Sequence record: NZ_AP023324.1 | Strand: one strand, 5' to 3' | DNA from: a plasmid | Length of the DNA stretch: 64,000 nt | In this document: piece by piece, positions 17,649-58,053 of the stretch | Numbering within the stretch: position 1 is the first letter of the stretch | Layout: every line of letters begins with the position of its first letter | Made by a program: the position numbers and the translations under genes | The notes under the pieces: model-generated | What the model was told of the DNA's origin: nothing | The model's input: only the letters and a program-made list of their open reading frames with translations | The model's database searches: none

Positions 17649-18661
17649 TTACAGGCGGGGCGGCGTTTCCTGCTGGTCTAGCAGGGTCGCCTGCGCCACC
17701 CATCGCCGTCCACCTTGCCCAAGCGCGAGGCCGAAGGCCGGCAACAGGCCGAGCTGTTTCATGACGAGATAGGCTATAACCGGCGCGCCCATGCCGATCG
17801 CCGTGCACAGGACGAGATACAGCCAACTGATGGGCGGCACGTGCAAGATTTTCATCAAAATGATTCGCGCACCAGCGCCGGCAAGAATATGCATGACGTA
17901 GATTGCCATCGACATGGTACCGATCGCCACCAGCGCGGCCACATGTTCCAGCCGCTGCGAAATCCATAGCATCACCACGATCCCACCGATAGCGGCAGGC
18001 AGCATGAGTACGGAGTTGTAGTTGCTGAAGCCATGATGATGGGCGACGGCGATGGCGGCGGCGCCCAGCAGCGTTAAGCCCGCCGCAACCCCGCCACCTA
18101 TGCGTAGCAGGTCACGCAGCTTCGGACGACCCATCGCCATTCCCGCAACGAAGAAGATCGGAAAATGTAGTAATTGATGGCCAAAATTGTCTTTCGGTAG
18201 CCATTCTCCGATCAGGAAGGCAGCCAAGGCGGGACGAAGAATAGCGGCAGTGGCAGGACGCTGGCCAGCATCATGAACAGGAATAGCGCATATAAGAACC
18301 AGAAAGGTGAAATAGGTGCCCAGGCGATGTAAAGCATTTGACGGGGGTCAAAGGCATTGTTGGTGACATGGCTGAGTACGGTCATGATGGTGCCCGACAA
18401 TAGAGACCAGAGCACATAGGGATACAGCACGGAGGCGATTTTGCTGCGTCGAAAATAGGTCATCCCTTTGCCAAGGCTGTTTGGCACGTTGAGACCGGCC
18501 AAAAACATGAACAGTGGCATATGGAATGTGTACAGCGCGAAATCGAATAACTGCCAGCGGACATCCCGAAGCGTCCCCGCCGACACCAACCCACGCTCCA
18601 TGTGGCCGAGCACGACCAGGAATATTCCTATACCCTTCGAGGCATCCTGGGGGCACCTCAA
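17649..18661 (-). CDS. acyltransferase family 3 membrane protein (OatA/OafA-like O-acyltransferase), frameshift near 18215
   Basis: …GIGIFLVVLGHMERG…FHMPLFMFLAGL… plus ~8 further TM helices in the second fragment, consistent with Pfam Acyl_transf_3. Confidence 0.6.
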
Positions 18662-18795
18662 GGTTTGTCATATGGACAGCGGCAGTCGGAACAAATGGTC
18701 AACAAAAGCCTGAGCGTTGCCGCAAAGTATATTAAGTTTCGTGGGTTTGTGAGGTTGGACGAGTTGGAAGTTACCGGATCACCTCTCGTGATGTT

Positions 18796-19619
18796 TCACC
18801 CGCGGAGCTCGTAGTAGACGATCTGCCATCCATTCTTGGGACCGCGCCACTGGGTGATCTGAAAGCTATGGGCTTGTGCAGACCCGTCGAGGACGCGGCT
18901 ACTCCACCGTAGCGTTTCATCGTAACTGCTTCCGGACGATAACGCACCCGCTATGCGCCGAATGGGCAGCTTGGCGGGGAGCCTGCGGATGCGTCGGCCA
19001 TCGTTGCCGACAAAGATAACGTCTTCGGCCACGCTTCGTCTTGGAACAGCCAACCAGTCGACCTGTTTGCCGGCCTGCTCCTGTCGCAAAACAGACGCGA
19101 TCTCTTTCGCATCGCTAACGGCTTGGATTTGGAGCTGTTCATTGGTGAGTTTTGCCGAGCACTCAGGTTCGATCGCTTGTAAACTTTCTGCCGCTAATGC
19201 CTTCGATCCATCCCGACGATAGTCGTCGATTTCCAGCGCCACCCCTCAGCACTGTTCCGCCAAAGCGTCTTATATGATCCAACTCGATTTCCGCCATCGT
19301 ACAGCCCGCCGATAACAACTGCCGACCCGCTCGGATCACAGGACGGAAAGACAAGTTCGGGTCTGCGCTCGGCATGGCTCTCGACACTCATCATTGTGAG
19401 CCACCACCTTCGGCTACTCTCGGCTGCTTGCAACATGCTGGCCACAGATGGAGAGCGCGCGGTTTCGGGCGCATGTTGTATTGGCCAGGGGTCGCTTTGT
19501 GGACCGAAACTGCGTGCCGCTGCCTGACGGCCACTGGCAAGTACAGCTTCCGAGTAGGCCCGCTCCGCCTCCAGCGCGGAATTCGGCGAACTTGCCGCTA
19601 GTAGAAGCGCGAAGATCAT
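18796..19619 (-). CDS. secreted hypothetical protein (signal peptide MIFALLLAASSPNSALEA), two ORF fragments
   Basis: ORFs 19194..19619 and 18796..19242 overlap in different frames. No recognisable domain. Confidence 0.35.
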
Positions 19620-19639
19620 GGCGAAATCCTACTCCTCAA

Positions 19640-20219
19640 TCAACGTGTCGAGCGATGTACGGGCATCTGCGCCGGATGGTTGAGCGCCCGATAGAGCGTG
19701 GCATGATGACACTTCAGCAGCTTCGCCGCTTCGCGCACCGATGTGCCTTCGCCGACGAGACGCTGTCCGAGCGCGATCTGGTCCGGAGTGAGCTTGGGCT
19801 TACGCCCGAACTTCACGCCGCGCGCCATGGCTGCCGCGCGGCCGGAACTGGTACGCTGGTGGATCAGCTCGCGCTCGAACTCCGCGATGCCGGCGAACAC
19901 GGTGAGCACCATGCGTCCCGCAGGCGTGGTCGTGTCGGCCCGGGCTCGGCGAGCGAGCGCAGCCCGCTCCCGCCTCGTTCAGCTTCTCGGCGATGTCGAG
20001 CAGGTCGCGCGTCGACCGCGCTAGGCGATCGAGCCGGGTGACCACAACCACGTCGTCGTCGCGCAGCTGCTCCAGCATCCGGTCGAGTTCCGGTCGGGCG
20101 CGCTTGGCGCCGGACACCTTCTCCTCGAATGTCCGCCGGCATCCGGCCGCCTTCAGTGCCGTCTTTTGAAGCGTGAGATCCTGATCGTCGGTAGATACGC
20201 GCGCATAGCCGAGGAGCAT
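19640..20219 (-). CDS. tnpR: serine recombinase/resolvase (Tn3-family TnpR-like), frameshift near 19915
   Basis: MLLGYARVSTDDQDLTLQ…VVTRLDRLARSTRDLL…FAGIAEFERELI…C-terminal HTH (TSVREAAKLLKCHHATLYRAL). Confidence 0.75.
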
Positions 20220-20289
20220 GTCGCAGATGTGCATTGGAACACGGCTGATTAGCAACAGACATTTGCGACAGCGTCCGCCCTCGTGGCGT

Positions 20290-20343
20290 GACCGGTTGTA
20301 AACGCTCGCGCTAAGTGGCGGCATTCTGATCGCGCTATTTGTC
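20290..20343. repeat. left terminal inverted repeat of nested Tn552-like element
   Basis: 52/54 identical to the reverse complement of 23317-23370. Confidence 0.8.
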
Positions 20344-20923
20344 GGCGAGCGTCGCTACGCGGCTACCGGCTTGGTCTCGGCCGATCGCACATAGGCGTAG
20401 AGTGTTGGCTTGGAGATGCCGAGCATCGAGCAAATCTTGGCGATCGGCATCGTGTTCTCGTGGTAGAGCCTGACGGCGGTCGCGCTTGTCCTTGCCGAGT
20501 GCGGCCGGCCGGCCACCCTTCTTGCCGCGAGCGCGGGCTGCGGTGAGACCGGCACGGGTCCGCTCGCGGATCAGGTTGCGCTCGAACTCCGCCAATGCCC
20601 CGAACAGGTGGAAGGTAAGCTTGCCCGACGTGGTGGTCGTGTCGATCGCCTCGTGCAGGCTCAGCAGCCCGACCTTTTCCTCGTCGAGGTAGGTCATCCA
20701 TCCGATCAGATCACGGAGCGAGCGGCCGAGCCTGTCGAGGCGCCAGACCACCAGTGTGTCGCCGGCGCGAAGCAGCTCCTTCACCTTTTCCAATCCAGGG
20801 CGAGCGGCAGTCGCCCCGGAGGCCTTGTCGGTGATGACCTTCTCGCAGCCGGCAGCCTTCAGCGCATCACGCTGGAGGTCCGGTTCTGCTCGGCGGTCGA
20901 TACGCGGGCGTAACCGATTTTCA
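20335..20923 (-). CDS. serine recombinase/resolvase of the nested element (TniR/BinL-like), frameshifted
   Basis: MKIGYARVSTAEQ…LQRDALKAAGCEKV…VVWRLDRLGRSLRDL…FGALAEFERNLI. C-terminal HTH fragment (…LYHENTMPIAKICSMLGISKPTLYAYVR) in ORF 20355..20555. Confidence 0.7.
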
Positions 20924-21036
20924 TGCGTAGGGCCGGTGGCGCCCGATCGGGCGCGGTTTGGGAAGAAAGTCGTCATCGGCAGGTCTATGTTGCCCTAGTT
21001 TTCTTTACCGGGTAGATTTACGTCGAACAGGCCGGT

Positions 21037-22510
21037 TTGGCAACGCGAGCGGACTCGCATGGCGATGGGCAGGCAAATCTCCGTTTTCCTTACCTGCGAC
21101 ACGGACCGTCGGCGGTGACGCATCCGGCGCTTGTCCCGCCGCTGGCGATCGAGCGCTACCGCGTCCTTGAACCGCACCTCGCCGATGGCATCCCGCTCGC
21201 GGACCTCGCCCGCACCGGCACGCTGAGCGAGCGGACGTTGCAGCGCTGGCTCGGGCGCTACCGTGCCGAAGGACTTGCCGGTCTCGCGCGTCTGCCGCGC
21301 AACGATCGGGGCAGGCTGCACCTGCCGGAACATCTGGTCGAACTGACCCGCACTCTCGCCACCAAGCGCCCGCGACCCCCGGTCGCCGCCATTCACCGAA
21401 AGGTGCAGGAACTCGCCATCGCGCATGGACACCGAACCCCCAGCTATGCGGCCGTCGCGCGTGTCGTCAGGGCGATACCGGCAAGCCAGATCGCCGCAGC
21501 CTCCGATCCGGCCGTCTACCGCGACCAGCACGAGCTAGTGCATCGGCGCGAAGCCGCGACCTCGAACGAGATGTGGCAGGCCGATCATACCGTTCTCGAC
21601 ATTCTCGTGCTCGATGATGCCGGAACCCCGGTGCGTCCTTGGCTGACCGTCATCGTTGACGATCACAGCCGAGCCATCGCCGGTTACTTCCTCAGCCTCG
21701 ATGCCCCCAGTGCCCTCAACACGGCGCTCGCCTTGCGGCAGGCGATCTGGCGCAAGCCCAATCCCGAATGGATCGTCAGCGGCATTCCCGAACAGCTTTA
21801 CGTCGACAACGGCTCGGATTTCATCTCCGAGCATATCGAGCAGGCGTGCATCGCCCTCAAAATCCGCCTCATCCATTCGCTGCCGGGGCGTCCTCGCGGG
21901 CGCGGCAAGATCGAGCGGCTGTTCCGCACCATCAACGACATGTTCCTGCCCGACCTGCCCGGCCACCTGATCGCGGGCAAGCCGCTGTCGGCGCCAGTGC
22001 TCACGCTCGACGAGCTGCGCGCCCGCTTCGAGGCGTTCGTGTGCGGCGTCTATCATCGTCGCCCGCATGGCAGCACCGGCGAACCGCCGATCACGCGCTG
22101 GCAGAAGGGCGGGTTCCTGCCCGCAATGCCCGACAGCCTTGAACAGCTCGACATGCTGCTCGTGCACGTGCCCAAGCCCCGTAAAGTGCTGCGCGACGGC
22201 ATCCGTCTGATGGGCAGGCGCTATGTCGAACCCACGCTCGCGGCCTTCGTCGGCGAGCAGGTCGAGGCGGTCTATGACCCCGCGACCTGACCGAGATCCA
22301 CGTCTACCACCAGGGGCCGGTTCGTCTGCCGTGCGCTCAGCTCCGAGCACGCTGGGCACCCGTCGTTGCGCGCGATCCAGCGCGCCCGGCGCGGCGCGAA
22401 GGAGCGCGACAAGCAGGTGCCTGCCCCCACGGAGACCTTCGATGGCGACCAAGAGGATACGGCTTCCCGGCCCACCACCTACCGAGGGCTCCGGCTCTAC
22501 GCCGCTGACG
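21037..22510 (+). CDS. tniA: TniA/Tn552-p480-like DDE transposase (Mu-type integrase core), frameshift at ~22290
   Basis: N-terminal HTH domains (GTLSERTLQRWLGRYRAEG). Integrase core (MWQADHTVLDILVLD…VIVDDHSRAIAGYF…YVDNGSDFIS) contains the D,D,E residues. The C-terminal tail continues in another frame (DLTEIHVYHQGRFVCRA…). Confidence 0.7.
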
Positions 22511-23318
22511 ATTGAGTTCCTGGTCGAGCAGCCGTTCACGGCGACCCGCGAACATGCCCGGTTCGTCGAGTTTGCCGAAGCCTGCGCGCACTACCGCTAT
22601 ATCGGCGTGTGTCATGGCCGGCCGGGCGTCGGAAAGACGCGATCGGCGCGCGAGTTTTCCAGCTTCCCCGACCGGGGAATATGCCGCGCTCCGTCCCATT
22701 GCCGCGCTCCTTGGCGAAAAGGTCGCTCGCTGCCGCGCCGTCTTCTACACCGTGTCGGTCAGCAACACGCCCAAGACGATCGACGCGGTGTTGGGCCTCA
22801 ACCTCATTAAGCTGGGCTATGCCCGGCTGACGGTCGCGGGCGGCTCGCAGGACGAAATCACCCATGACGCCGCCCGCATCGCCTGCCCCCTCGTCATCGT
22901 CGACGAGGCCGACCGCCTGACCATAAAGTCGCTCGAACATCTCCGCGACATGGCCGATCGCCACGGCTTCGGGCTGATCCTGATGGGTATGCCGGGCTTG
23001 GAGAAGCGCCTCGCCCGCTATGCCCAGCTCTACTCGCGGATCGGCTTCGTCCACGAGTTCAAACCGCTTACCGAGACCGAAATGCGGCTGCTGCTCGCGA
23101 CCCACGCCGGCGATTTCGGGATCAGCTTCGACCCGGCCCAACTCGACGCGATCGAAGCGCAGGCAGCCGTGATCCGCATCACGCGCGGCAACTTCCGGCT
23201 CATGGAGCGCCTGTTCGCGCAGATGCGGCGGATCATGACCCTCAACCGCGTCGAGGAGGTCACCGCTGACATCGTTCAGGCCGCGCGCGATTGCCTCGTC
23301 ATCGGACCCGGCAACTGA
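22442..23318 (+). CDS. tniB: TniB/Tn552-p271-like AAA+ ATP-binding transposition protein, frameshift near 22670
   Basis: …YIGVCHGRPGVGKTRSAREF (Walker A) …LVIVDEADRLTIKSLEHLRD (Walker B/DEAD-like) …GLILMGMPGLEKRL. About 270 aa. Confidence 0.7.
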
Positions 23319-23370
23319 CAAATAGCGCGATCAGAACGCCGCCATTTAGCGCGAGCGTTTACAACCGGTC
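23317..23370. repeat. right terminal inverted repeat of nested Tn552-like element
   Basis: Reverse complement of 20290-20343 with two mismatches. Confidence 0.8.
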
Positions 23371-23455
23371 AGGGCCGCTGTCACGAAACTTGAGAGTTAC
23401 GCGACACCTCGCACGTGTCGGCCATAAACTATACGCTCCCGGACAGGGGTGATCG

Positions 23456-26414
23456 ATGGCCAGACGCGATCTGTTAACGGGCGACGAACGCCGCGCGTTG
23501 TTCGGCGTGCCCCTCGACCATGCCTCGCTCGCCAAGCATTACACGGTTGCCGATGAGGACCGGCCACTGATCGAAGCGAAGCGCGGCGACGCCAACCGGC
23601 TCGGCTTCGCGCTGCACCTCGCCCTGCTGCGTCATCCCGGCTTCGGCATACGCCACGACGATGTCGTCCCCGATTTTCTGATCCGGCACCCGCGCAACTC
23701 GACATCGCGCCCACAGCGTTCGAGGGCTACGCGCATCGCGCCCAGACCCGGCTCGAACACGCACGGGAGGCGATGGAGCGTTTGCGCCTGCGCGCGTTCG
23801 AGGCGGCCGACGTCCCCGGCGCGCTCGGCGCAGCCACCCGCGCGGCGGAAGCGACCGAACGGGGCAAGCCGATCGCCGCGGCAGTGCTGGGCCATTTGCG
23901 TGCTGCCCGGATCGTTCTGCCCGCGCCCGCCCGTATCGAGCGGATCGGGGTGGCGGGGCGCGCCATGGCGCGCCGCCTCGCGGCCGACACGCTGGTCGAT
24001 GCGCTTGCTCCGGAGCAGGTGACGGGGCTGGATGCGTTGCTGATCGTGGACCAGGATCGCAGCACGACGCCGCTCGCGTGGCTGCGCGACACGTCGGACA
24101 GCCCGACCGCGCGCAATCTCGCCGGCATTCTCGCCCGGCTCGCGCACGTGCGCCGGCTCGGGCTCGACCCGGGCATGGCCGGCCGCATCCACGAGCACCG
24201 CTTCGAGCAGCTCGTGCGCGAAGGCCACGTCGCGCCCGCGTTCCTCCTGTCCGACTACTCGCTCCGCAGAAGGCGCGCGACACTCGCCGCAGCCGTCATC
24301 GACACGGAAGCGCGGCTCGCGGACGCCGCGATCGAGATGTTCGGCAAGCAGACCGGCCTCCTGTTCGCCAGGGCGGGGCCGCGCAGAAGCGCGGCATCGA
24401 GGCGACCACACGCGACGTGAACCGGCTCATGCGGCTGCTGGGCGCCACGGTCGGCGCACTCCGGGTCGCGCGCGAGGACGGGTTGGACGTCTGGGCGGCG
24501 CTCGACGACGGGGTGGGCTGGACGAGGCTTCTGGACGCCGAGAGCGAGGCGACCGCGATCGCCGACCTGACTCGCGACGAGCCGCTGATCCGCGCGGCGG
24601 GGCGCTACATGACGATGCGGCGCTACGCGCCCGCGTTTTTTGACGCGTTCCGGTTCAAGGCGGCAGGCTCGCGCGACGGCGTGCTCGGCGCGATCAAGGT
24701 CGTGCGCGCGCTGAACGCGACCGGGCGGCGAGACGTACCGGCCGATGCGCCCATGCCGTTTTCCAGAAAATGGAAGGCGGCGATCACCGAGGGCGGCGTC
24801 ATCGACCGCCGTCGCTACGAAACCGCCACGGTCGCGACCGTGCGCGAGCGGCTCCAATCGGGCGACCTGTGGGTGGAGGGTACGCGCGAACACCTGCGCT
24901 TCGACAGCTATATGCTCCCGCCCGGCAAAGCGGCCGAGATCGCGCTCACGCTGCCGTTCGACACCGACGTCGGCCGCTACTTGGAGGGGCGCGCCAGGCT
25001 GCTCGACTGGCGGTTGCGCCGGTTCGCAGGCTCGCTGAAGCGCGGCACGCTCGACGGCGTGGAGCTGCGGGGCGGTAACCTCAGGGTCAGCCCGCTCGCG
25101 GCCGTAACGCCCGCTGCGGCCGACAGGCTGGACGCGGCCGTCGACCGGCTCATGCCCCGCGTGCGCATCACCGAGCTGCTCGCCGAGGTGGAAGCCCGCA
25201 CCGGGTTCCTGTGCGCATTTCCGGAACTGCGCTCGGGCCGCGCCCACTCCAACCCGCAGGCCGTGCTCGCCGCGATCGGCAGACGCGACGAACCTCGGCA
25301 TCGAGCGCATGGCCAACGCCAGCCGGGCGTCACCTACGCCCAGCTCGCCTGGACGCATGGCTGGTACGTATCGGAAGAGAATTACGCGGCAGGGCTGCGC
25401 CATCTGGTGGACGCGCAAGCCGCGCTGCCGCTCACGCGCGTGTGGGGCGACGGCACCGCGTCGAGCTCGGACGGGCAGTTCTTCCGCTCGGGCAGGCGGG
25501 GCGCGGCCGGCAGCACCAACGCGCGCTACGACCGGGAGCCGGGGCAGAAGATCTACGCCCATGTCGCCGATACCTACGCGCCCTACCATGTCCGGCTGAT
25601 CTCGGCGACCGCGGCGGAGGCGCCCTATGTGCTGGACGGGCTGGTCGCGCACGGCTGCGGCATCGAACCCGCGACCCACTATGCCGATACGGGCGGCGCG
25701 TCCGACCACGTGTTCGCGCTCGCGCACCTACTCGGCTTCCGGTTCGTGCCCCGCCTGCGCGATCTAGCCGATCGCCGGCTCGGCCTGTTCCCGGGCACGG
25801 CCCGCCCCGAGGCGCTCGCGAAGCTGATCGGGCGCCCGTTCAACATCGCTGCCATCCGCGAAAGCTGGGACGAGATCGTCCGGCTCGCCGCGTCCGTGAA
25901 GGCCGGCGTGGTGCTACCGTCGGTCATGCTGAAGAAGCTGGCCGCGTACCGTCGCCAGAACCGGCTCGACTTCGCGCTCCAGGAGCTGGGCCGGATCGAG
26001 CGCACCCTGTTCACGCTCGACTGGCTAGAATCCAGGGCGCTCCGCCAGCAGTGTCAGGCTGGGCTCAACAAGGGCGAGGCGCGTCACACGCTCGCCCAAG
26101 CCGTGTTCGTCCACAAACAGGGCCGCCTGCGCGATCCGCAGTTCGAGAACCAGGCGCTGAAAGCGTCCGGGCTGACGCTGGTCACCGCCGCGATCGTGTA
26201 CTGGAACACGCTTTACATGGGCCGCGCCGTCGAGCATCTGCGCGCCAGCGGCGAGCCCGCGCCCGACGAGCTGCTCGCCCATGTAGCCCCGCTAGGCTGG
26301 CGACACATCAGCCTGACCGGCGATTACCTCTGGCAAAACGCCGCTGCCGAGCTCGATCAAGACGGCTACCGCGCACTCAACATCGCCGGCGGACCCGGAG
26401 CCAAGGTGGCCTGA
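23456..26414 (+). CDS. tnpA: Tn3-family transposase TnpA (~985 aa; frameshift(s) in first third)
   Basis: N-terminus MARRDLLTGDERRALFGVPLDHASLAKHYTVADEDRPLIEAKRGDANRLGFALHLALLRHPG is the canonical Tn3 TnpA start. The 778-aa ORF 24078..26414 carries the Tn3 DDE region (…YHVRLISATAAEAPYVLDGL…HYADTGGASDHVFALAHLLGFRFVPRLRD…). Confidence 0.85.
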
Positions 26415-26439
26415 GCCGCCCTGTTCGCTACCTGTTCAG

Positions 26440-26477
26440 CTTACCGCTGTCCGTGTCACAAACCTTGAGGTGCTCCC
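26440..26477. repeat. 38-bp Tn3-family terminal inverted repeat (IR-R)
   Basis: Reverse complement is GGGAGCACCTCAAGGTTTGTGACACGGACAGCGGTAAG, with GGG at positions 1-3 and TAAG at 35-38 as in Tn3/Tn21 IRs. Located 26 bp after the tnpA stop. Confidence 0.75.
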
Positions 26478-26699
26478 ATCCTGCCATATGTAGCGGGCCG
26501 ACGATCGGCTGAGTTTGTTGGTTGCTGTTTCGTATACCTGCGGTGAGGTTGTTGGCCACCTCTGCGGCGAGGGGGCTGGTTCGTCAATCATCTAGAAATC
26601 TTTCTGACATTCGCACGATGCTAGCCCGGCTTTGATGCGGGGGATAGACGAAGGCCAGTCTGCCCGCCCATTCCTGATGATAGCGTGTCACCCGCAGGC

Positions 26700-47966: not shown

Positions 47967-49138
47967 GTGCGCGTCCTGACCTTCCTGCACAGTTTCGAAC
48001 CGGGTGGGGTGGAGCGGATCGCGCTGCGCCTCGTCCATCGCTGGCGCGCGACCGGCGTCGATGCGCCGCTGTTCCTGGGGCGGACCGATGGCGCGATGGC
48101 GCGAGATGTCGGCGCCGACCTCGACTTCGTGACGCCGCGACGTCGCTGGCCGGGCATCGTGCATTGGGAAACGCTGTGGATGGTTGCCACGCTGCCGCGC
48201 GCGGTGCGGACGATCCGGCCGGACGTGCTGTTCTGCGCGGGCAATACCTATGCCTTTGTCGCGGTGATGCTGAAGCTGATCCTGGGTCGCGATTGCCCGC
48301 CGATCATCGCCAAGATCAGCAACAATCTCGATCGCACCGACGCGTCTGGGTCTACCGTGTCTTCTACCGCCTCTGGCTGCGTATCCAGGGGCTGGCGATC
48401 GACCATTTCGTCGGCATGGAAAAGCCGATGCGCGCCGAGATCGTGCAATGCATCGGCGTTTCGCCCGCCCGCGTCGCGATCATCCCCGACCCCGCCTTGT
48501 CCGAGGCGCAGATCGCCGCGTTACGCCAGGATGCGCCGGTCGCACAGCCGCACGACGACTGCGGCCACCGCTTCGTCACCGTCGCGCGGCTGGCGCCGCA
48601 GAAGAACCTGGCGCTGATGCTGCGCGGTTTCGCGCGCGGTGCCGCGCCCGCCGACACGCTCACCATCTTTGGTGAAGGCCCCGAACGTACGATGCTTGAG
48701 GCATTGGCGGTGGAACTGGGCGTGGCCGACCGGATCGCGTTCCGGGGTTATGTCGCCAACCCCGCCAGCCTCCTGTCGGGCTACGACACGCTGCTCCTGT
48801 CCTCGCATTATGAGGGGGTACCGGCGGTGATCCTCGAGGCGCTGGCCGCCAATATCGGCATCATCTCCACCGATTGCAGCCGATCGATGGCCGCTTTGCT
48901 GCAACAGGGTGCGCTGGGCACGCTGGTGCCGGTCGGCGACGAAGCAGGCTTCGCAGCCGCCATCCGCACCGCCCGCCCCAGGGCCCAGAACGCCCAGCGC
49001 ACGCTGCACCAAGCGCGCCGCTTCACCATCGAACATGGCGCGGACCATTATGCCCGCGTGATGCGCACCGTTCTGCACCGCCGGGCCATGCCGGCACCCG
49101 CCCCGCGTATCGAGGTCCCGGTCGCGCCGCAGCTTTGA
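47967..49138 (+). CDS. glycosyltransferase family 1, frameshift near 48350
   Basis: MRVLTFLHSFEPGGVERIALRL… (GT4 N-terminus). C-domain …LLLSSHYEGVPAVILEALAANIGIISTDCS…. Confidence 0.65.
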
Positions 49139-49162
49139 GCCCGGCGCACAGGGCCTGTCGCC

Positions 49163-49600
49163 CTATGTCAGCTGCAACGTTTCCAGCATGGCATGAAACT
49201 GGGGTTCGAGCGCGGCCATGTCGCCGCGCGGTGCGGTGGCCGCCGCGACCACGACCGTATCGGGGTCCGCCGGCAGGAAGGACAGCCACTGCGCCAGCGG
49301 CTCCACACCATCGGTCCAGACAAGCCGCATCTCGGCGGTCGGCAAATCGGGCGTGGCGTGGCGGCGCATCAGTTCCGCATAGCCCGGCTTGCCCTTCCAG
49401 CGTTTAATCTCACCCTCGACATGCGCCTCGATCCGCCGGGCGATGTCGGCAGGGGCCTGTCCGCCGCCCGCCAGCACGTCACGCGTCACCACCAGATTGG
49501 CCGCGATCCCCGATGCGCCGGGAGGTGCCGTCAGCACCAGCATCGATCGGTCGGCCCACCCCTCGGGACAAGCGATCTCCATGCCCTGCACCCAACTCAC
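49163..49600 (-). CDS. hypothetical protein, last gene of the toxin/ankyrin operon (overlaps 3' end of third ankyrin copy by 4 bp)
   Basis: 145 aa, no signal peptide and no clear motif. Co-oriented with and abutting the immunity array. Confidence 0.35.
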   Translation of the reverse strand: MSWVQGMEIACPEGWADRSMLVLTAPPGASGIAANLVVTRDVLAGGGQAPADIARRIEAHVEGEIKRWKGKPGYAELMRRHATPDLPTAEMRLVWTDGVEPLAQWLSFLPADPDTVVVAAATAPRGDMAALEPQFHAMLETLQLT

Positions 49601-50068
49601 GACTGGGCCCCCGCCGGTGGCCAGCGCCCTTCCTTGACCATTTCCAGCACCTCGTCGCTCTTGGGCGGCGGAAAGGGATAGCCGCGCGCCTTCAGCTTGG
49701 CGATCACTCGCAACCGCGCTTGATCCTCCTCTGATCCGGGAATGACGCGGCTGGTTTCAGCTATCTGAGCGGCCGTCATACCGAATTGATTATAGGCCCA
49801 GATGTCGGCCCCGTGATCGATGAGAATTTCGACCACGGTCCATTGGTTTGAGCCGCGGCAAAGATCATCGGCGTGTCATTGTTGGTGTAATAGCGTTCGT
49901 TCTGGCCGACGCCCTGATCCGCCAGGGCGACGCACCTCATCGGTCTTGGCATGCATGACGGCACCTAACATCGGCTGGATCGCCTGCTTGTTCGTCACCG
50001 TGTCTTCTCCCGAGCATCCTGCTGCCAGCAGGCACCCGATCACCACGGCATAAGTTCGAAGGGGTTTC
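49597..50068 (-). CDS. ankyrin-repeat lipoprotein, third paralogue (decayed, ≥3 frameshifts)
   Basis: Frame-corrected reading MKPLRTYAVVIGCLLAAGCSGEDTVTNKQAIQPMLGAVMHAKTDEVRR…LADQGVGQNERYYTNNDTPMIFAAAQTNGPW…VEILIDHGADIWAYNQFGMTAAQIAETSRVIPGSEEDQARLRVIAKLKARGYPFPPPKSDEVLEMVKEGRWPPAGAQS, about 80% identical to the two upstream copies. Confidence 0.5.
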
Positions 50069-50085
50069 CATACCCTGCACCCGGC

Positions 50086-50562
50086 TCACGATCGTGCCCC
50101 TGCTGGTAGCCAGCGCCCTTCCTTGACCATTTCCAGCACTTCGTCGCTCTTGGGCGGCGGAAAGGGATAGCCGCGCGCCTTCAGCTTGGCGATCACGCGC
50201 AACCGCGCCTGATCCTCTTCCGATCCGGGAATGACGCGGCTGGTTTGGGTGCGCTGGGCGGCGGTGATGCCGAACTGGTCATGCGCCCAGATATCGGCAC
50301 CATGATCGATCAAGGTTTCGACCATGCCCCACTGCATCGTTTCGGCCGCCGCAATCATCGGCGTGCTTTGATTGGCCGGATCGCGTTCGTTCAGGCTGAT
50401 GCCCTGTTCCGCTAGCTGGCGAACCCTTTCAGGCCGGGAATGCATTACAGCCCCCAACATCGGCTGTATTGCCGTATTGTTCGTCACCGTGCTCTTCCCC
50501 GAGCACCCAGCCGCCAATAGGCAGCCGATCGTCACGGCATAGACCTGCCAAATGATTTTCAT
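50086..50562 (-). CDS. ankyrin-repeat lipoprotein (putative periplasmic immunity protein), second paralogue
   Basis: Lipobox LAAGC|SG. Ankyrin repeats (…TPMIAAAETMQWGMVETLIDHGADIWAHDQFGITAAQ…). 158 aa, intact. Confidence 0.65.
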   Translation of the reverse strand: MKIIWQVYAVTIGCLLAAGCSGKSTVTNNTAIQPMLGAVMHSRPERVRQLAEQGISLNERDPANQSTPMIAAAETMQWGMVETLIDHGADIWAHDQFGITAAQRTQTSRVIPGSEEDQARLRVIAKLKARGYPFPPPKSDEVLEMVKEGRWLPAGARS

Positions 50563-50575
50563 ACCCTTCGCTCAC

Positions 50576-51058
50576 CTATGACTGCGCTCCCGTCGGTGGC
50601 CAGCGTCGTTCCTCGACCAGCTTCAGCACCTCGTCGCTCTTCGGTGGCGGAAAGGGATAGCCACGCGCCTTCAGCTTGGCGATCACGCGCAACCGCGCCT
50701 TGTCCTCATCTGATCCCGGCATGACGCGGCTGGTCTCGGCCTCTTGCGCAGCCGTCATGCCAAACTCGTCATATGCCCAGATGTCGGCGCCGTGGTCGAT
50801 CAGGATTTCTACCATATTCCATTGCATCGTTTGCGCTGCCGCAATCATTGGCGTACTTTGATCAGCGGAATAACGCTCGTTCAGGCCGATGCCTTTATCT
50901 GCCAGCCGACGCACTTCGTCTATTTTCGAGTGCATTACTGCACCGAGCATCGGCTGAATCGCGGCCTCGTTTGTCACTGTGTTCTCTCCCGAACATCCTG
51001 CGGCTAGTAGATAAGTAATCACCGTCAGATGACGCCACATAACATGCCCCTTATCCAC
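50576..51058 (-). CDS. ankyrin-repeat lipoprotein (putative periplasmic immunity protein), first paralogue
   Basis: Lipobox LAAGC|SG, same architecture, 160 aa. Starts 8 bp inside the 3' end of the toxin gene. Confidence 0.65.
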   Translation of the reverse strand: MDKGHVMWRHLTVITYLLAAGCSGENTVTNEAAIQPMLGAVMHSKIDEVRRLADKGIGLNERYSADQSTPMIAAAQTMQWNMVEILIDHGADIWAYDEFGMTAAQEAETSRVMPGSDEDKARLRVIAKLKARGYPFPPPKSDEVLKLVEERRWPPTGAQS

Positions 51059-52279
51059 ATCCGTTGGTGATCAAATCCAGCGCGATTGAGCGCTGTTTCA
51101 AATGAATTGCGGGGATGACCTCGTCCATGAGATGCAAATTGACGGAGCGCATGGCTGCATATTTGCCTGCGGCCAAGATACCATCGCGTTCATAGGCTTG
51201 GCGTATCCCTTCACTCATTTCAGGCTCGTCAGGGGGCAACCGCCATGCGCGGGTTTCAGCTGTCCTGGGCATTCCTGGAATTTCCTGGCTGGCACGTAAA
51301 ATCTCGCCGTCCAGATAAACACCGTCTATTTCTGATGGTAAGGCGTTGGACACGGTGTTGCTGCGCAGGCCAGCCGCATTGAATGTCGTTGCCGGCAAGC
51401 CAGAAGAGCGCGCCGCAGCAGAGGCCATGCCGCCCCCCAAAGAATGACCAACAAATCGAGTTTTGGTGCCCGCCCCACCGGCGGCATTGATAACCTTTCT
51501 GCCAATTCGCTGGGAATGGTTATAATAGAACGCATCCATCCCCAGGCCTTGGGCAAAGTTCTGCCCCCAATCCGAAGCACTAGTCATGGTCGTCCCCTTG
51601 AAAGCCACCAGCGGCGCGCCCGTCGCATTGTTGACGAACACGCCGGCGCGGAACTCACTGGGCTCGCCGGATGACGGATCGATGGGATGCTCCAGCATCG
51701 CTTCCGTCAGGTTCAACCGGCGCAGATCCTCGGGCGTGGCGTTGCGATAGCCGGGCGGCGGGGTGCGTTCGCCGGGGGGATCATAGACCGCCTGCGCGGC
51801 CTGCGCCTCGACGAGGAATTGCGCGATTTTCGCGGCGTCCGCGCGCAGCAGATCGCAGGTCGAGGGCGGTGGTCCCTGACCGATCCGGACATCGGGCGAT
51901 CCCTCCAGGATGAGAGCACCGCAATCGAGCGTGTCGGAAACCCGCGCCGCCTCGCGCTGGTTGATGGAGACCGTACGAGACCCGCTGACGACCGTGCGCA
52001 GGCCGCTATGCTGGCGGCATTGGCCGGTCGACCGGATCGTCATGGTGGCGGGGCGGCCATTGATAAAGACGTCGCGCGATCCGAGCGTCAGCTGGCCATC
52101 GGCCGGCGCCCAGCGTCCGCCGCTCAGCCCACGCGCGATCAGCCGGCCGAGATTGCCCGCGCGCATGTCCACCTCGCTGCGACGGGCAAAGAACAAACCG
52201 TCCAGTGCCTCGCCGAACAGGCCCCGCTAAAGCTGTGGCCGATCGGATCGCCCACTCTGGCGGCGGCATTCATGCTCAT
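51051..52279 (-). CDS. PAAR-domain toxin with C-terminal class-3 lipase/alpha-beta-hydrolase domain (T6SS Tle-like phospholipase effector candidate), one frameshift near 52140-52200
   Basis: N-terminus MSMNAAARVGDPIGHSFSG and, after the frameshift, …GSRDVFINGRPATMTIRSTGQC… are the two halves of a PAAR motif. C-terminal …TRFVGHSLGGGMASAAARSSG… is a GHSLGG lipase nucleophile elbow with upstream oxyanion-hole region. Confidence 0.65.
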
Positions 52280-52531
52280 CGCGGGCGCTTCTCCTGCATG
52301 TCGTCGCGATCGTTTGACCTTATTCGACAATCGTCGGACGGGTAAACAAGCCATATCTTCACGTCAGTTATGAAAACCACGACAGGGTTGCGCTGCGATA
52401 TTCATCGATATGGCGAACCATGAGCCTTAATTGTGACATGATTGCCACACTAAACATCGCCATCACGTCGGCGATGGGAGTGGCTGGGCGATGGGGTACA
52501 GGGAGCGCGCGCGGCCGAGGGGCGGCGTGGG

Positions 52532-55044
52532 ATGGTCGGCGGTTGTCCGGGACTGGCGATACCAACAGGGGCGATGGCGCAGGCCGATCCCGGCGAACAG
52601 GCACCCTCTGCGGAAGTCACCGTCACCGGCAAGCGCATTCCCGGCTCCATCATCGGCGCGGTCGAGCCGGTCGCGGTGCTCGATGCCGAGGCGATTGCGG
52701 CGCTGGGCGCGCCCAGTCTGGCCGAGTTGCTCAAGCGCGTGAAATCGCTGACCAGTTCGGCGAGCGGGGGCGAGCCGGTGATGCTGCTCAACGGGCGGCG
52801 CATATCGGGCTTCGCCGAGTTCCAGAACCTGCCCTATGAGGCGATGGAGCGGATCGAGGTGCTGCCCGAGCAGGAGGCGGCGCGCTTCGGCTATCCACCG
52901 ACGGTGCGGGTGATGAACTTCATCACCAAGAAGAAATTCCGCGCGGTCACGCTCGGGTCCTGCCCGGCATCGCGACGGACGGAGGCGGTGAGACCAATTA
53001 TGCCGAGTTGACCTCGGCCCGGATCGACGGCCCCGCCGCCTGACCTTCAACCTGTCGCACTTCCGACAGAACCCCGTCCTTCAAAGCGAGCCCGCTGTCG
53101 TGCCCGATCCCGAGACGCTGTTCGCGACGACGGGCAATGTGACGGGCGTGAACGGTGTCAGCCGGACCCCGCGCTCGACCGGCTGGCGGGGCGGGCGGTG
53201 ATCCTATCGGGGGTGCCGGTCGATCCGGCCGCGCGGGCGTCGCTGGCGGCCTATGCGACGACCCCGGTCGCGGTCACCGATCTGGGACCCTATCGCACCC
53301 TGATCCCGCGCACCGACACCATCCATGCCGAAACCGGTATCGCCAGCCCGCTCGGCAAGTCCCTGTCGGGATCGCTGACCCTGTCGATGGAGGCGAGCCA
53401 GAATCGCGGGCTGAACGGACTGGCACCGGCCGTACTGGGGGTGCCCGGCGGGGCGGGGGCGCTGCCCTTCGCCAATGATGCGCTGCTCTATCGCTATCTG
53501 CCCGCAAGCGTGCTGCACCAGCGGACGACCAGCATGGCGCTGCATGCGGGCGGCACGCTTCTGGGTGATGTCCGCCGCTGGAGCTGGGCGGTGACGGGCA
53601 ATTACGACCGGCTGGTCTCGCGGAACAGTTCGGAGACGGGCGTGCCGTTGGGGGCGCTTCAGGCGGCGATCGATGCGGGCGGCGATCCCATGGCGCCGAT
53701 CGATCCGGCGATCGCGGCGCAGCGCCTTGTCAACCGCAGCCGTGCGACCTCCGACACGCTGGGGATCAAGGCGACCGCCAATGGCCCCATCGTCCGCCTG
53801 CCCGCCGGCGAGGCGCAACTGACCGTTACCACCGATTACAGCCGCATCGACAGCCAGGCACGCTCGAACCTCGCGCTCGCGGACCCCGGCGTCGGACGCA
53901 CCATGCGCGGGGCCAGCGTCAATGCGACGGTGCCGATCGCCTCGGCGCGCGAAGGCTCGCTGCCCTTTCTGGGCGAGATGCAGCTCAGCGGCATGGCGGG
54001 GGTGTCGCAGGTGTCCGACTTCGGCCGGCTCAGCACCTCCAATCTCGGGCTGACCTGGTCGCCCGTCCGCCCGGTCCAGCTCAACGCCTCGGTCAATGTC
54101 GCGCAGACCGCACCCGCCGTCACCCAGTTGGTCGCGCCGGTGCTGACCACGCCCAACACGCCCTTTTTCGACTATGTGACCGGGCGCAGCACACTGGTCA
54201 CCACCATCATGGGCGGTAATCCCGATCTGGCGCCCGAACGGCGTCGGATCACGACGCTCGGCATCGCGCTCCAGCCGATCCGGGACAAGGATATCCGGCT
54301 GAGCGTCGATTATCTCGACACGCGGATCGACAACCGGGCGGCCTCCTTGGGCGGGGCCACTCCGGCGTTTCAACGCGTTTTCCCCGACCTGTTCCGCCGC
54401 GACGCGCTCGGCCAGTTGATCAGCGTCGATCTGCGCCCGGTGAACCTGGCGTTCGAGCGTGAGCGCAAGCTGCGCATGACGGTCGATCTGCAGGCGACCC
54501 CAAGGCAAGGCCCCCCCCGGCCGCCCCCTCGCCCCCGATGCGGCCAAGACCGCGCCCCCGCCCCGCCCGCCCAAGCCGCGATTGCAGATGCGGATGTCGG
54601 CGACGACCAATTACCGGCTGGAGGATCGGCTGACCCTGCGCGAAGGCGGGGCGGTCCTCGATCTGCTCGACGGTGCGACGCTCAGCGGCACCGGCGGGCG
54701 ACCGCGCTGGGATGTCGAACTGAACGGCTCGGTCAATTACGGGATCGCCAATCTGGGAATGTATGGCCGGGTCCAAGGGCCGACCCGCATCCGCAGCGAC
54801 ATCGCCGCCTCCGACCTGCAGTTCTCGGGGCGGACCTGGCTGGTCCTCTACAGCTTTCTGGACACGCACAAGATCGTGGACAAGCCCGACCAAGGGCCTG
54901 ATGATCCATTTCACGATCGAGAACCTGCTCAACGATCGGATCAACGTCACCGATCGTAACGGCCAGACGCCGAACCGCTTCCAGCCGGCGCTGATCGACC
55001 CGGTGGGCCGATCGATCCGGATCGGGGTGCGCAAGCTGTTCTGA
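52532..55044 (+). CDS. TonB-dependent outer-membrane receptor, several frameshifts
   Basis: Signal peptide …AIPTGAMAQA. Plug domain (…EVTVTGKRIPGS…LAELLKRVKSLT…LLNGRRISGF…ERIEVL). Barrel fragments in three frames. C-terminus …RIGVRKLF (terminal Phe). Confidence 0.7.
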
Positions 55045-55161: not shown

Positions 55162-58053
55162 CTACATTTCCAGACCGAAGTCCCGCGACCGTCCCCGCCC
55201 CGATGGTCCATCAAGCGACAGATGTTTTTCTGGCACCTGTTTGACCACGTCGAGCGCTGAGGTCTTGTCGCCGGTATTGCGGGTGACATGCCTTTCGACC
55301 CTCCGCCCGTCGTCGACCACCAGCGCCACCTTGTCCGCCACGCGGGTGAGCGCGACGAGAAACGAGCGCTCGGTCAGCAGCTTTTGCTCCGACGAGCGCA
55401 TCGCCACGATGCCGTGCTCGGTCGTGACCCCCTGTGCGACATGGACGTTGATCGCATAGGCAAGGTCCAGCCGTTCGGCCATGCGGTCGCCGGACGCGAT
55501 CTCATGCACGGTGCCGTCGATGAGCGAGGACACGACCAGCCTGCCCCGCCCCACTTCCTCGACCCGCGCCATCGCACCGTTATCAAGCCCGCGGATCCGG
55601 TCGTTGTCGCTCCAGCGGATACGGTCGCCGACGTGCAGCTCGATCTGCTTCAATGCGAAGATCGACACGGCATCGCGGTCGAGGTTTTTGGCTAACCGAT
55701 CGGGCCGGAGTAGCTTCTCGGTCCCGTCCGCCATGCCGAGCCGAACCCGGTCGCCCTCCACGCCGGTCACGACCCCGCGTTCGCCACGGGTCAGGCCTTG
55801 GCTGGTCAGGTTGGTGCGGATCTCAACCACATGGCCAGGCCGGTAGGCGCGCATCAGCCGCGCGCCTTCCACGTGGCGTTGACCCGGTCGAGCACGGTAA
55901 ACGCCGTGCCCGTGGCAGCGATCTCGCCGCTCGCCTTCAACTCGGCCTGCACCGCCTGGTTGGCCTCGCTGCGCATGGCGCGGCCGGCGGTCAGCAGGAG
56001 GGTGGCGTCACGCTGGCTTTGCGGCAACGCGGCCCAGTGCTCCGCAGCCGTCGTCGCCACCGCGTTCCCCGGCACCTCGGTCGTGGCCGCCCTGAGTATC
56101 TCGAACGTACCCGACACATCGCCGCGGTCGAGCGCGGCGGTGACTGCCTTCATCTGATCCGACCGGGAACGCAGGTTCTCGATGATATGGGCCGTGGCGA
56201 CGCCAGCCTGCTGGCTCGCCTCGAACGGCTTGCCGGCCGCGATCGCGGTCAGCTGACGGGTGTCGCCGGTCTGCACGACACGCGCGACGCCGGTGATGTT
56301 GGCAAGCCGCACGATCCGCTCCATGTCGCGCGTCCCGAGCTGTCCGGCCTCCTCGACCATGACGATCGCACCCGACAGCTCCGCCTTCACGCGCGCGACC
56401 TGTTCCAGTCGGGCCGTGCCGTCGATCACGCGGGCATGACGCGCCAGGAAGCGGGCCACCGTGCTCACGTCCGCGCCGGTGTCGCGCCCGAACTCGCTCG
56501 CCTTCACGCTGGCGATGGCGAGCCCGATTACCGCCCGTCCTTCTGCCCTCGTTACCGCCGTCACCGGCGCCATCGCGGTCGACTTGCCGCGTCCCGAGCC
56601 GCCCTGCACGTTGACCACACGGTCGGACGAGGACAGCATCAGCACGGCCGCGGCCTCCTGACCCGGGTTGAGGCGATGCAGCCCCAGCTCGCGTGCCGCC
56701 TCCTGCGCCCGGATCGCGGCATCGACCGGCGGAACAATCGGGGCGGACTGCCCCTTTCCCGCCTCGACACTGGCAAGGTACGCCTGCTCCAACCGCACCG
56801 ACCCTTGCGTCGTCACCATGCGATCGCCGTCGCCGAGCAACAGGCCTTTTGCCTCCAGCAGCGCCAGCCGGGCTTCGACATCGGCGACCGTTACCGGCCC
56901 GCCACGCGACAGGCTCTCGCGGATGAGCTCGAGCCGGTCGAACGCCGCCTCCCGCTCGCCGAGATCGCGCACCGCGGACGCGACCGCCTGCGCCGCAGCA
57001 TAGGCGCGCGGCTCCAGTCGTCCCAGTCGCTCAGGGACTAGCGGGTCGCCGTCGCGCGGGGTCAGCCCCATGCGTCCGGCGATGGCAAGACCGCGCTCGC
57101 CTATTCCGCGCACGCCCCGCACCGTGCGCGTCCATACATCATGCCCCGTCCTGCCTCCGCCAGCGCACCCTTCACCAGTGCTGCCGGATCCAGCCCCTTC
57201 TCCGCGGCCAGCCGCCGCCACCCTTCCGCGCGCTGCTCCGGGGCGAGATCGGGCGACTTAGGGTCGCGGGTCGCCAGCGCCGCATATTCGCGCGTCTGCG
57301 GGGTGTTCTCCAATCCGCGCGCCTTGATGTACGTGTCGATCTCGGCCGAGCGGACGGAGAATGCTTCCACCACCGCGCGCGACACGCCGGCGATCTCGAA
57401 GGCGCCGTTGCGACCGTCGTGCCGGGGGATGGTGGCAAAGCCGAGCGTCTCGACCCGGCTGCGCAGCGCGGACAGGAACACCGCGTCCATGACGTGCTGG
57501 CGCTCGTACAGCTGGTCCGCGTGCAGCGCCCGCCACTGGCCGTCGGCGGTACGAGTCGCGTTGGCGATGACGTTATGGACGTGGAGCTGCGGCTCACCGC
57601 TGCGGTTCACGTCGTGAAGGAAAGTTGCGGCGACGAACCGGCCGGTCACCTCGGGCACGGCCCCTGCCGTTCCAGACCCGCCCTTCCGCAATGTTGCGCT
57701 CCGTCGGTGAGGGTCGCGGCTGCTGCCTCGCGCACCGCGGCCACCAGCCGTGCGTCCCCGCCCACGAGCGCCAGGATCGACACCGACTTGGGCACGGACA
57801 TGGTGATGTCCCAACCTGCCCGGTGTTCACCTCGTTTGGCGTCCAACACGACGCCGTTGGGGAGTTCGCCGGCCAGCACCTGTTCGAACCGCTCGGCATC
57901 GACCGGCCCGGACAGACCCAGCTCTGCGGCACCCTCGCCTGCCAGGGCACTGACCCCTTCTGCTTGATCGGCGGTATAATAATTGTCGCGAGCGTAATAG
58001 GTAGCTGCGTCGGAGGCCGAACCGACCGCCGCAACCGAGATCACTGTTTGCCC
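55162..58053 (-). CDS. traA: MobF-family conjugative relaxase/helicase (TrwC/TraA-like), frameshifted (four ORF fragments)
   Basis: N-terminal relaxase motifs …AVGSASDAATYYARDNYYT… and …HDVNRSGEPQLHVHNVIAN (HxDxxR…H-x-H). Central RecD-like helicase …VNVQGGSGRGKST… C-terminal domain in ORF 55162..55872. GTG start near 58053. Confidence 0.75.

Follow-up and report, generated by a model that had tools for sequence, protein, structure and literature searches.

The 64,000-nt stretch of plasmid DNA analyzed here (sequence record NZ_AP023324.1, referred to below as the window) carries at positions 49163-52279, entirely on the minus strand, a compact cassette made up of a 409-codon toxin gene, three genes encoding ankyrin-repeat (Ank) lipoproteins and a fourth open reading frame (ORF), all of which are found as described in an initial annotation made from the sequence. 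The cassette is real and coherent, and it is largely already explained by a toxin family described in 2023-24. It very probably represents mobile, plasmid-borne cargo of a type VI secretion system (T6SS), in which a lipase toxin travels with its immunity proteins and a chaperone, and in which the breaks in the reading frames are most likely assembly errors. As such it is a variant within two known kinds of system, the Tle6/Tli6 lipases and the prePAAR/Eag effectors. The window itself is a variant of a 76-kb Sphingomonas paucimobilis plasmid (NZ_CP065671.1; locus L001) that carries RepA, ParA, MobF and exopolysaccharide (EPS) genes, is syntenic with nearly the whole window and served as the reference for comparison. 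Further comparisons were made with a metagenome contig (L087) showing 96% DNA identity to the cassette, with a Logan contig (L002) carrying the toxin allele P0002, and with the neighborhoods of the toxin family at 80 genome loci; P0001 (99%) and P0002 (87%) are intact homologues of the toxin.

The G+C content across ∼49500-52500 is 55-62%, compared with 66-70% in the flanks, which fits an acquired cassette. Measured from the likely ATG start codons, the genes are separated by gaps of 10-13 nt, with a GTGA overlap at the junction of ank3 and the fourth ORF; the toxin gene and ank1 would overlap, by 8 nt, only if ank1 began at a GTG at 51058. A scan of positions 48900-52700 for promoters and terminators returned sites at chance level only, and thus no operon boundaries are claimed.

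The toxin gene (tle6-like; 51051..52279) begins at an ATG at 52279 that is preceded by a GGAGAA Shine-Dalgarno sequence, and ends at a stop codon at 51053-51051. As given, its coding sequence is split over two frames, one yielding MSMNAAARVGDPIGHSFS and the other running from GLFGEALDGLFFARR... through ...LITNGCG, while the intact relatives P0001 and P0002 read ...GHSFSQGLFGEAL... across the same break. Once the frame is corrected the protein is 409 aa long, matching the original codon count, and is composed of a prePAAR motif, a linker, a PAAR domain and a C-terminal phospholipase domain. The lesion had been placed at 52140-52200; alignment with the intact relatives and with L087 moves it to 52224-52226, and at base level the comparison with L087 resolves it into the loss of one base and an A>G change in codon 19.

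The motif AARVGDPIGH near the N-terminus (aa 6-15; 52235..52264), taken at first for one half of a PAAR motif, fits the consensus AARxxDxxxH of the prePAAR motif, the hallmark of effectors dependent on an Eag (DUF1795) chaperone (PMC7773334). A PAAR domain follows at aa 62-124 (51909..52097) and is recognized by the Pfam profile PF05488 with 39.9 bits (E=5e-10; cut-off 27 bits), the PDB matches to this region being 4jiv/4jiw and Tre23 (7pq5). The intervening linker (aa 16-66; 52083..52234) is charged and amphipathic, and occupies the site of a Gly-rich transmembrane (TM) region in relatives. By a simple hydropathy measure other than TMHMM, the maximum Kyte-Doolittle mean over 19 aa, the linker of the toxin reaches 0.37, with 11 of its 51 residues charged, and the linkers of the window clade as a whole have values of 0.26-0.52 and contain 9-11 charged residues. 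At this position 27 more distant homologues have a Gly-rich TM region, whose hydropathy is 2.0-2.4.

The phospholipase domain (aa 142-409; 51054..51857), which is of the PF26363/Tle6 type by profile, phmmer and Foldseek comparisons, is a clear homologue, in sequence and in fold, of the T6SS lipase Tle of Enterobacter cloacae. A single-sequence phmmer search already links the toxin to E. cloacae Tle (7ubz_B) with E=9e-16, and a profile of 29 homologues matches the Tle structures 9CYS and 7UBZ with E=5e-48 over 266 residues (chain residues 40-305). In these alignments the published triad of E. cloacae Tle, Ser341/Glu393/His448, falls on Ser280 (51443-51441), Glu326 (51305-51303) and His383 (51134-51132) of the toxin, with Glu326 in the context LDGEIL compared to VEGELL in Tle. 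The GHSLGG nucleophile elbow is present as described at the outset, and both the extended form G-H-S-L-G-G-G and the catalytic His are invariant in all 29 homologues; a TFNAAGL motif is likewise common to the toxin and to the Tle6 proteins. The AlphaFold2 (AF2) model of the toxin has a predicted local distance difference test score (pLDDT) of 90-98 throughout the lipase domain. Foldseek places 9cys_A first among PDB entries for this model (E=3e-13, TMt 0.68), ahead of class-3 lipases of fungi and feruloyl esterases with E=3e-5 to 3e-3. These next-best matches include the lipases of Rhizomucor miehei and Thermomyces lanuginosus and the feruloyl esterase A of Aspergillus, which differ from the toxin in being secreted eukaryotic enzymes with 11-17% sequence identity to it and with neither a delivery domain nor an immunity protein. 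The earlier label “class-3 lipase-like” is therefore apt at the level of fold and superfamily, where Foldseek supports it, and fails at the level of the family: the Pfam Lipase_3 profile scores 14.2 bits against a cut-off of 22 bits, over only 19 residues near the elbow, and membership in that family was rejected. The Pfam scan reported no other lipase family for the toxin, while PF26363 (“Phospholipase-like”) was found on 120 of 120 database homologues among the matches listed.

E. cloacae Tle is neutralized by Tli, an ankyrin-repeat lipoprotein (Jensen et al., J Bacteriol 2023, preprint 10.1101/2023.03.28.534661; Nat Commun 2024, PMC11470151), and the name Tle6 was proposed because the enzyme belongs to none of the families Tle1-5 (PMC11470151). 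The pairing of an ankyrin lipoprotein with this lipase, initially thought to match no known Tle/Tli family, is thus the defining trait of Tle6/Tli. The system shared by E. cloacae and by Slp of Serratia marcescens has in common with the cassette the lipase family and fold, the Ser-Glu-His triad, an ankyrin-repeat lipoprotein gene immediately downstream of the lipase and, among relatives, tandem copies of that immunity gene. The two differ in that the lipase of the cassette is fused to prePAAR and PAAR while E. cloacae Tle is a stand-alone cargo, in that an Eag protein is encoded after the immunity genes, and in that the cassette is plasmid-borne and remote from any T6SS cluster. Fusions of this lipase to PAAR, VgrG, DUF4150 and Rhs have already been listed (PMC11470151; 10.1101/2023.03.28.534661). 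The scan of 80 loci found fusions to VgrG in Burkholderia metallica (97% to an annotated TssI) and Chondromyces, to Rhs in Vibrio cincinnatiensis, to DUF4150 in B. catarinensis and to PAAR in Dickeya, with Ank genes directly downstream of the lipase and often in tandem, reaching six copies in Dickeya oryzae; tandem arrays were seen also in Pseudescherichia, Pectobacterium and Brenneria. The cassette extends the proposed Tle6/Tli6 family to Sphingomonas plasmids and to the Acetobacteraceae.

The better-known families offer a more distant comparison. Tle1 carries DUF2235, Tle2 belongs to Lipase_3, Tle3 and Tle4 have DUFs of their own, and Tle5 is a phospholipase D (PLD) with the HxKxxxxD motif. 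Tle1-Tle5 and their Tli1-5 partners (Russell et al. 2013) resemble the cassette in two ways: these antibacterial lipases act in the periplasm, as the toxin is predicted to do, and their genes are directly followed by those of periplasmic or lipoprotein immunity proteins. The GxSxG nucleophile is common to Tle1-4, and PldB, with its three Tli5 proteins, provides a parallel for tandem immunity paralogues. In contrast to these families, the toxin has no Pfam match to their domains, Lipase_3 remaining under its cut-off, and the immunity fold of the cassette is an ankyrin fold.

Directly downstream of the toxin lie ank1 (50576..51040, or to 51058 if the upstream GTG is used), encoding a 154-aa protein with the lipobox LLAAGC|S and Ank_4/Ank_2/Ank matches; ank2 (50086..50562), encoding 158 aa; and ank3 (49597..50071), which contains three indels and encodes a 158-aa lipoprotein once these are corrected. 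The mean DNA column identity among the three genes is 85%, and in every product ...LLAAGC|SG precedes ankyrin repeats (Ank_2/Ank_4/Ank, E=5e-8 to 2e-4), so that the initial description of three lipobox-bearing ankyrin paralogues is borne out by the profile searches. The product of ank1 matches P0121 of S. paucimobilis at 100% identity and is identical to SPKIRA_37630 of plasmid pKira_1. These proteins belong to a family with 112 members, 120-180 aa in length, that is restricted to Sphingomonas and the Acetobacteraceae; of 36 members, at least 90% retain the lipobox Cys. In the AF2 model of Ank1 (pLDDT 87.5), a disordered tether (aa 1-22) leads into three helix pairs of ankyrin type, after which comes a C-terminal helix, and the model superposes in Foldseek on designed ankyrin repeat proteins (DARPins) with three repeats. 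At ∼135 mature residues and three helix pairs, the Ank proteins are shorter than Tli with its six repeats, and fold and sequence searches, which were dominated by DARPins, showed no link between Ank1 and E. cloacae Tli beyond the term “ankyrin”.

A comparison of alleles assigns these genes to different toxins. Across the three toxin alleles at hand (that of the window, that of L001, and P0002 of L002), aa 1-230 are 96-99% identical and aa 230-409 (51054-51593 in the window) are 73-83% identical, and on these sequences the locus follows a polymorphic-toxin pattern in which a near-invariant first ∼230 aa is joined to several C-terminal alleles. The mature Ank proteins likewise fall into three types, each of which is found directly after its own toxin allele. 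Type 1, represented by ank1 of the window and the identical L087_a (100%), follows the window allele, and ank1 is always directly 3′ of this allele in the loci compared. Type 2 includes ank2 of the window, L087_b, L001_B (96-97%) and the Ank protein of L002 (86%), the last being the sole Ank protein behind the P0002 allele. Type 3 includes the corrected ank3 of the window, L087_c (94%) and L001_A (93%), and L001_A directly follows the L001 allele. From this arrangement ank1 is identified as the cognate, Tli-like immunity gene, and ank2 (assigned by identity of the mature proteins) and ank3 as orphan immunity genes of types 2 and 3 against sister alleles in other Sphingomonas strains. With three toxin alleles and three immunity types at four loci, the cassette offers a clear example of an allele-matched orphan immunity array. 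The proposal that periplasm-directed ankyrin lipoproteins give immunity to the PAAR-lipase is supported, at the level of sequence, by the lipobox, by the Ank matches and by this matching of types to alleles.

The array also appears to record how it was assembled. The 5′ sequence of the fourth ORF, GTGAG..GGGTGCAGGG[C/T]ATGGA (VQGME; 49597-49625), recurs before ank3 (50071-50095) and, in a looser form, before ank2 (50562-50580), which suggests that immunity cassettes were inserted by recombination at the junction between the Ank genes and this ORF. Loss can be seen as well: at the same glycosyltransferase/TonB-receptor site in Sphingomonas parapaucimobilis YK209 (L094 13389-14255, on an 880-kb replicon), the toxin is reduced to a 131-aa remnant that contains neither PAAR nor the catalytic Ser and ends in NGFG, the fourth gene survives in fragments only, and one Ank gene is intact. 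This sister species has kept the immunity gene after loss of the toxin, so that only the antidote is left.

The fourth ORF (49163..49600), described at first as small and unknown, encodes a 145-aa DUF1795 chaperone of the Eag type with no signal peptide (PF08786, named DcrB in Pfam and DUF1795 in the NCBI product name; 33.9 bits, E=4e-8; cut-off 27.2 bits). A profile of seven orthologues matches EagT6 (6XRF/1TU1) with E=6e-7 over positions 8-141 and SciW more weakly, making EagT6 the nearest solved relative. Orthology to DcrB was considered and rejected on account of the missing signal peptide and lipobox and of the synteny with a prePAAR effector. The order toxin-Ank-Eag is kept in L002, Acetobacter nitrogenifigens, Ameyamaea chiangmaiensis, Sphingomonas faeni and metagenome-assembled genomes (MAGs) of Sphingomonas, with no vgrG nearby at any of these loci. 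In S. faeni P300S2 (L009 7125-9282), the toxin is followed by a tandemly duplicated Ank-Eag pair in which each Ank gene has an Eag gene of its own.

The presence of eag places the toxin beside prePAAR/Eag effectors such as Tse6 with EagT6 of Pseudomonas aeruginosa and Rhs1 with SciW of Salmonella, with which it shares AARxxDxxxH at residues 6-15 with PAAR downstream, an adjacent DUF1795 gene, and a length of ∼410 aa like that of class II effectors. It departs from them in that the window clade has no predicted TM segment between prePAAR and PAAR, where its distant relatives have one, and in that those relatives have a single TM region before PAAR and none after. The position of the chaperone gene also differs: eag lies downstream of the immunity genes, while the pairs of Ahmad et al. 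(2020) put the lower locus tag on the chaperone (PMC7773334). In addition, the toxin would, by analogy with its homologues, act in the periplasm, so that translocation across a membrane would not be needed.

Taken with these characterized homologues, the cassette points to a mechanism in which the PAAR domain, completed by prePAAR, would cap a VgrG spike encoded elsewhere in the genome, while Eag would hold the N-terminal linker of the toxin until loading is done. Upon delivery, the Tle6-family alpha/beta-hydrolase, with its predicted triad Ser280-Glu326-His383, would cut membrane phospholipids from the target periplasm. The producer and its kin would be shielded by the ankyrin lipoproteins exported to the periplasm, which, by analogy with E. 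cloacae Tli, may sequester the lid of the lipase.

Several observations weigh against the cassette being T6SS cargo of this kind. T6SS core genes, vgrG and hcp are absent from the window, as initially stated, and from the related plasmid NZ_CP065671.1, where none are annotated; this leaves the cassette an orphan effector island, as it was first called, and the literature consulted on Sphingomonas does not establish a T6SS in S. paucimobilis. A tblastn search of all plasmids with a VgrG domain found 650 VgrG-bearing plasmids, in a summary by genus that does not resolve Sphingomonas. The TM region within the first 300 residues, one of three features by which prePAAR effectors were defined, is not found by hydropathy in the N-terminus of the toxin. 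E. cloacae Tli is about twice as large as the Ank proteins (six repeats versus three), making sequestration of the lid an analogy only, and the Arg180-Lys461 residue pair on which E. cloacae Tle depends is not recognizable in the toxin by profile alignment. Within the cassette, ank3 holds three indels in 477 bp, somewhat above the ∼0.5-0.7 expected from the background, which leaves some chance that this copy is truly decaying. Finally, activity, secretion and immunity for the whole clade, and chaperone binding with them, would have to carry over from characterized homologues.

The residue pair just mentioned bears on how the enzyme becomes active. Activity of E. cloacae Tle needs a methylglyoxal-derived (MODIC) crosslink between Arg180 in helix alpha1 and Lys461 in helix alpha13, which ties together the termini of the domain, and an engineered K186C-A472C disulfide can replace this crosslink in vitro (PMC11470151). 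In the toxin, the column of Lys461 is occupied by Gln396, which has a Lys before it (-1) and an Arg after it (+1). Nothing in the toxin aligns to helix alpha1 of Tle, the alignment beginning at Tle residue 199, and mapping of Arg180 or Lys186 onto the toxin, whose N-terminal helix is unaligned, yielded no position. What the toxin has instead at the ends of its lipase domain is a pair of Cys residues, Cys142 (51857-51855) and Cys408 (51059-51057). Cys142 opens the first helix of the lipase and Cys408 comes just past the last, within a C-terminal block modeled by AF2 with a pLDDT of 89-94. Counted from the catalytic His, Cys408 lies at His383+25 and A472 of the E. cloacae enzyme at His448+24, which puts Cys408 one residue past the engineered A472C. 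The lipase of R. miehei tethers its N- and C-termini by a conserved Cys123-Cys362 disulfide, in a placement comparable to that of the pair in the toxin.

The two Cys residues co-occur. Among 117 homologues, 99 have both and 8 have neither, and the 10 with a single Cys are truncated gene calls. In a stricter count based on position, 93 homologues have both, 5 have neither and 6 are scored as having the C-terminal Cys only; in at least five of these six an N-terminal Cys is present but lies beyond the ±4 residues that the test allowed. No full-length homologue with a single Cys of the pair was found among the roughly 105-117 examined. In an “RW.CR” subfamily linked to DUF4150 and VgrG, the N-terminal Cys is located next to the position of Arg180 and is again paired with a C-terminal Cys. 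When the “RW.CR” lipases of L019, L021 and L024 are compared with those of L018, L035 and L030 (ORFs at ∼8001), an N-terminal Cys is seen only with a terminal Cys (GCG, TCG, KKC), and proteins of this group without one Cys lack both.

The conserved terminal Cys pair may thus stand in for the glycation crosslink that joins Arg and Lys in E. cloacae Tle, and Cys142-Cys408 is hypothesized to be a disulfide staple formed in the target periplasm. Since such a disulfide can form only in the oxidizing periplasm of the target, the toxin would be activated by the Dsb system of its victim. The E. cloacae work left the question of whether all Tle6 lipases are activated by crosslinking through an advanced glycation end-product (AGE), and the co-occurring Cys pair suggests that most are not. 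A broader proposal, to which we give slightly less than even chances, is that the window clade and most PF26363 lipases do not use the Tli-dependent methylglyoxal Arg-Lys crosslink, that the toxin is activated by the Dsb system of the victim, and that the same clade combines a miniaturized Tli of three repeats with a prePAAR effector that has lost its TM segment and kept its Eag.

A different role for the Ank proteins has to be weighed here. In E. cloacae, Tle requires for its activity a cytosolic form of Tli made from internal start codons, and Met31 of the 154-aa Ank protein, 15 residues past the lipobox Cys, is invariant in 36 of 36 family members. On this basis the main function of the Ank proteins, beyond immunity, could be to activate the lipase or to help it fold, as cytosolic Tli does, with the array serving to supply activators. 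Met31 is, however, inside the first ankyrin helix, where it may be structural, and no consistent ribosome-binding site precedes it. The toxin does not conserve the Arg-Lys pair that is crosslinked with the help of Tli, and its Cys pair suggests a different stabilizing route, and ank2 and ank3 match other toxin alleles, a better fit to immunity. A primarily activating function is on balance unlikely. Met31 as the start of a cytosolic Ank isoform, with no consistent Shine-Dalgarno sequence upstream, is left as speculation.

With the Ank proteins read as immunity proteins, the question turns to the state of the cassette, which as given is broken at the toxin and ank3 sites. The indels of ank3 are found at about 50061 (-2), 49927 (+1) and 49855 (-1); a stop codon lies between these sites, and the gene reads as a normal lipoprotein once the indels are removed. 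Together with the toxin lesion this amounts to four coding indels in the 3.1 kb of the cassette. Compared with the proteins of NZ_CP065671.1, the coding sequence of the window changes frame 26 times in 25.9 kb, and in a second comparison 16 times in 11.4 kb, corresponding to ∼1-1.4 frameshifts per kb coding across the window; 25 of the 39 reference genes compared are frameshifted, and the pieces still show 92-100% protein identity to NZ_CP065671.1. Among the genes affected are a glycosyltransferase (47967-49138), a TonB receptor (52491-55041) and mobF (55165-58044). In L087 the toxin and all three Ank genes are intact. As the four indels equal the window-wide rate and L087 is intact, the breaks are probably an assembly artifact. 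Given the identity of Ank1 to SPKIRA_37630, the window is probably part of pKira_1 (79,575 bp) of S. paucimobilis Kira, whose genome was assembled from Oxford Nanopore Technologies (ONT) R9.4.1 reads and polished with Pilon and 75-bp Illumina reads; for this plasmid the authors reported “repA absent” and 98 coding sequences (CDS).

A genuinely decaying remnant would be a cassette with a real frameshift at codon 19, ank3 as a pseudogene, and ank1, ank2 and possibly eag left as an immunity island against the toxins of neighbors. The excess of indels in ank3 over a Poisson expectation speaks for such decay, as does the real loss of toxin and eag, with Ank kept, at the syntenic site of S. parapaucimobilis YK209. 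It is nevertheless improbable, a little more so than a primarily activating role of the Ank proteins, given that frameshifts at this rate affect almost all genes of the window, mobF, the TonB receptors, the EPS genes and repA among them, that the toxin and ank3 contain, indels aside, neither stop codons nor deletions and read through cleanly after correction, that L087 is intact, and that the probable source assembly is ONT-based. The first impression of two intact copies and a decayed third is not supported: ank3 is broken as given, but its indels are indistinguishable from the window-wide frameshift rate. The frameshift of the toxin and the indels of ank3 are most likely, judging from these alignments, errors of a poorly polished long-read assembly and not biological decay. 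That these apparent pseudogenes are in all likelihood assembly errors matters to anyone mining this replicon.

Delivery by another machine, such as an extracellular contractile injection system (eCIS) or a type IV secretion system (T4SS), or action on eukaryotic membranes with the ankyrin proteins as co-effectors, could be argued from the missing T6SS genes, from PAAR-like tips on eCIS particles (a match to SalCis10, 9rce_c), from the frequency of ankyrin repeats in eukaryote-directed effectors, including weak NCBIfam matches to Legionella Ank effectors, and from a distant homologue beside genes resembling a type III secretion system (T3SS) in Glacieibacterium, but is highly improbable in view of the prePAAR motif and adjacent Eag chaperone, a T6SS-specific signature in the literature (PMC7773334), the second Eag-Rhs cassette of T6SS type on the related plasmid, the conserved lipobox that keeps the Ank proteins in the envelope of the producer, the diversification of Ank in step with the C-terminal allele of the toxin, as expected of immunity genes, and the fusion of related lipases to bona fide VgrG.

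The distant lipase of Glacieibacterium frigidum (L040 346-3452, 8001-9578) is followed by a downstream 272-aa Ank gene; within a few kb are genes for a SctJ-like protein and an ATPase of a T3SS or flagellar-type export apparatus, with no T6SS genes nearby. This locus and the other distant Sphingomonadales loci (L014 and L065) are of high G+C content and contain many spurious ORFs, making ORF calling uninformative there.

The plasmid surroundings of the cassette differ between the window and the reference. At ∼18650-26480 the window has an insertion not found in the reference plasmid, a transposon block of the Tn3 family or of Mu type encoding a transposase, an AAA ATPase and a recombinase, and copies 99% identical to this block are present on many Sphingomonas and Sphingobium plasmids. 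NZ_CP065671.1 has, in 15.4 kb outside the coverage of the window, a second cassette of T6SS type (L006 11027-16334; NZ_CP065671.1 51026-56333), in which DUF1795 (Eag) is followed by a 1524-aa RHS core protein and a small ORF of 92 aa, and which adjoins a 2474-aa autotransporter. The 15.6 kb of pKira_1 beyond the window equals the size of this DUF1795-Rhs/autotransporter block.

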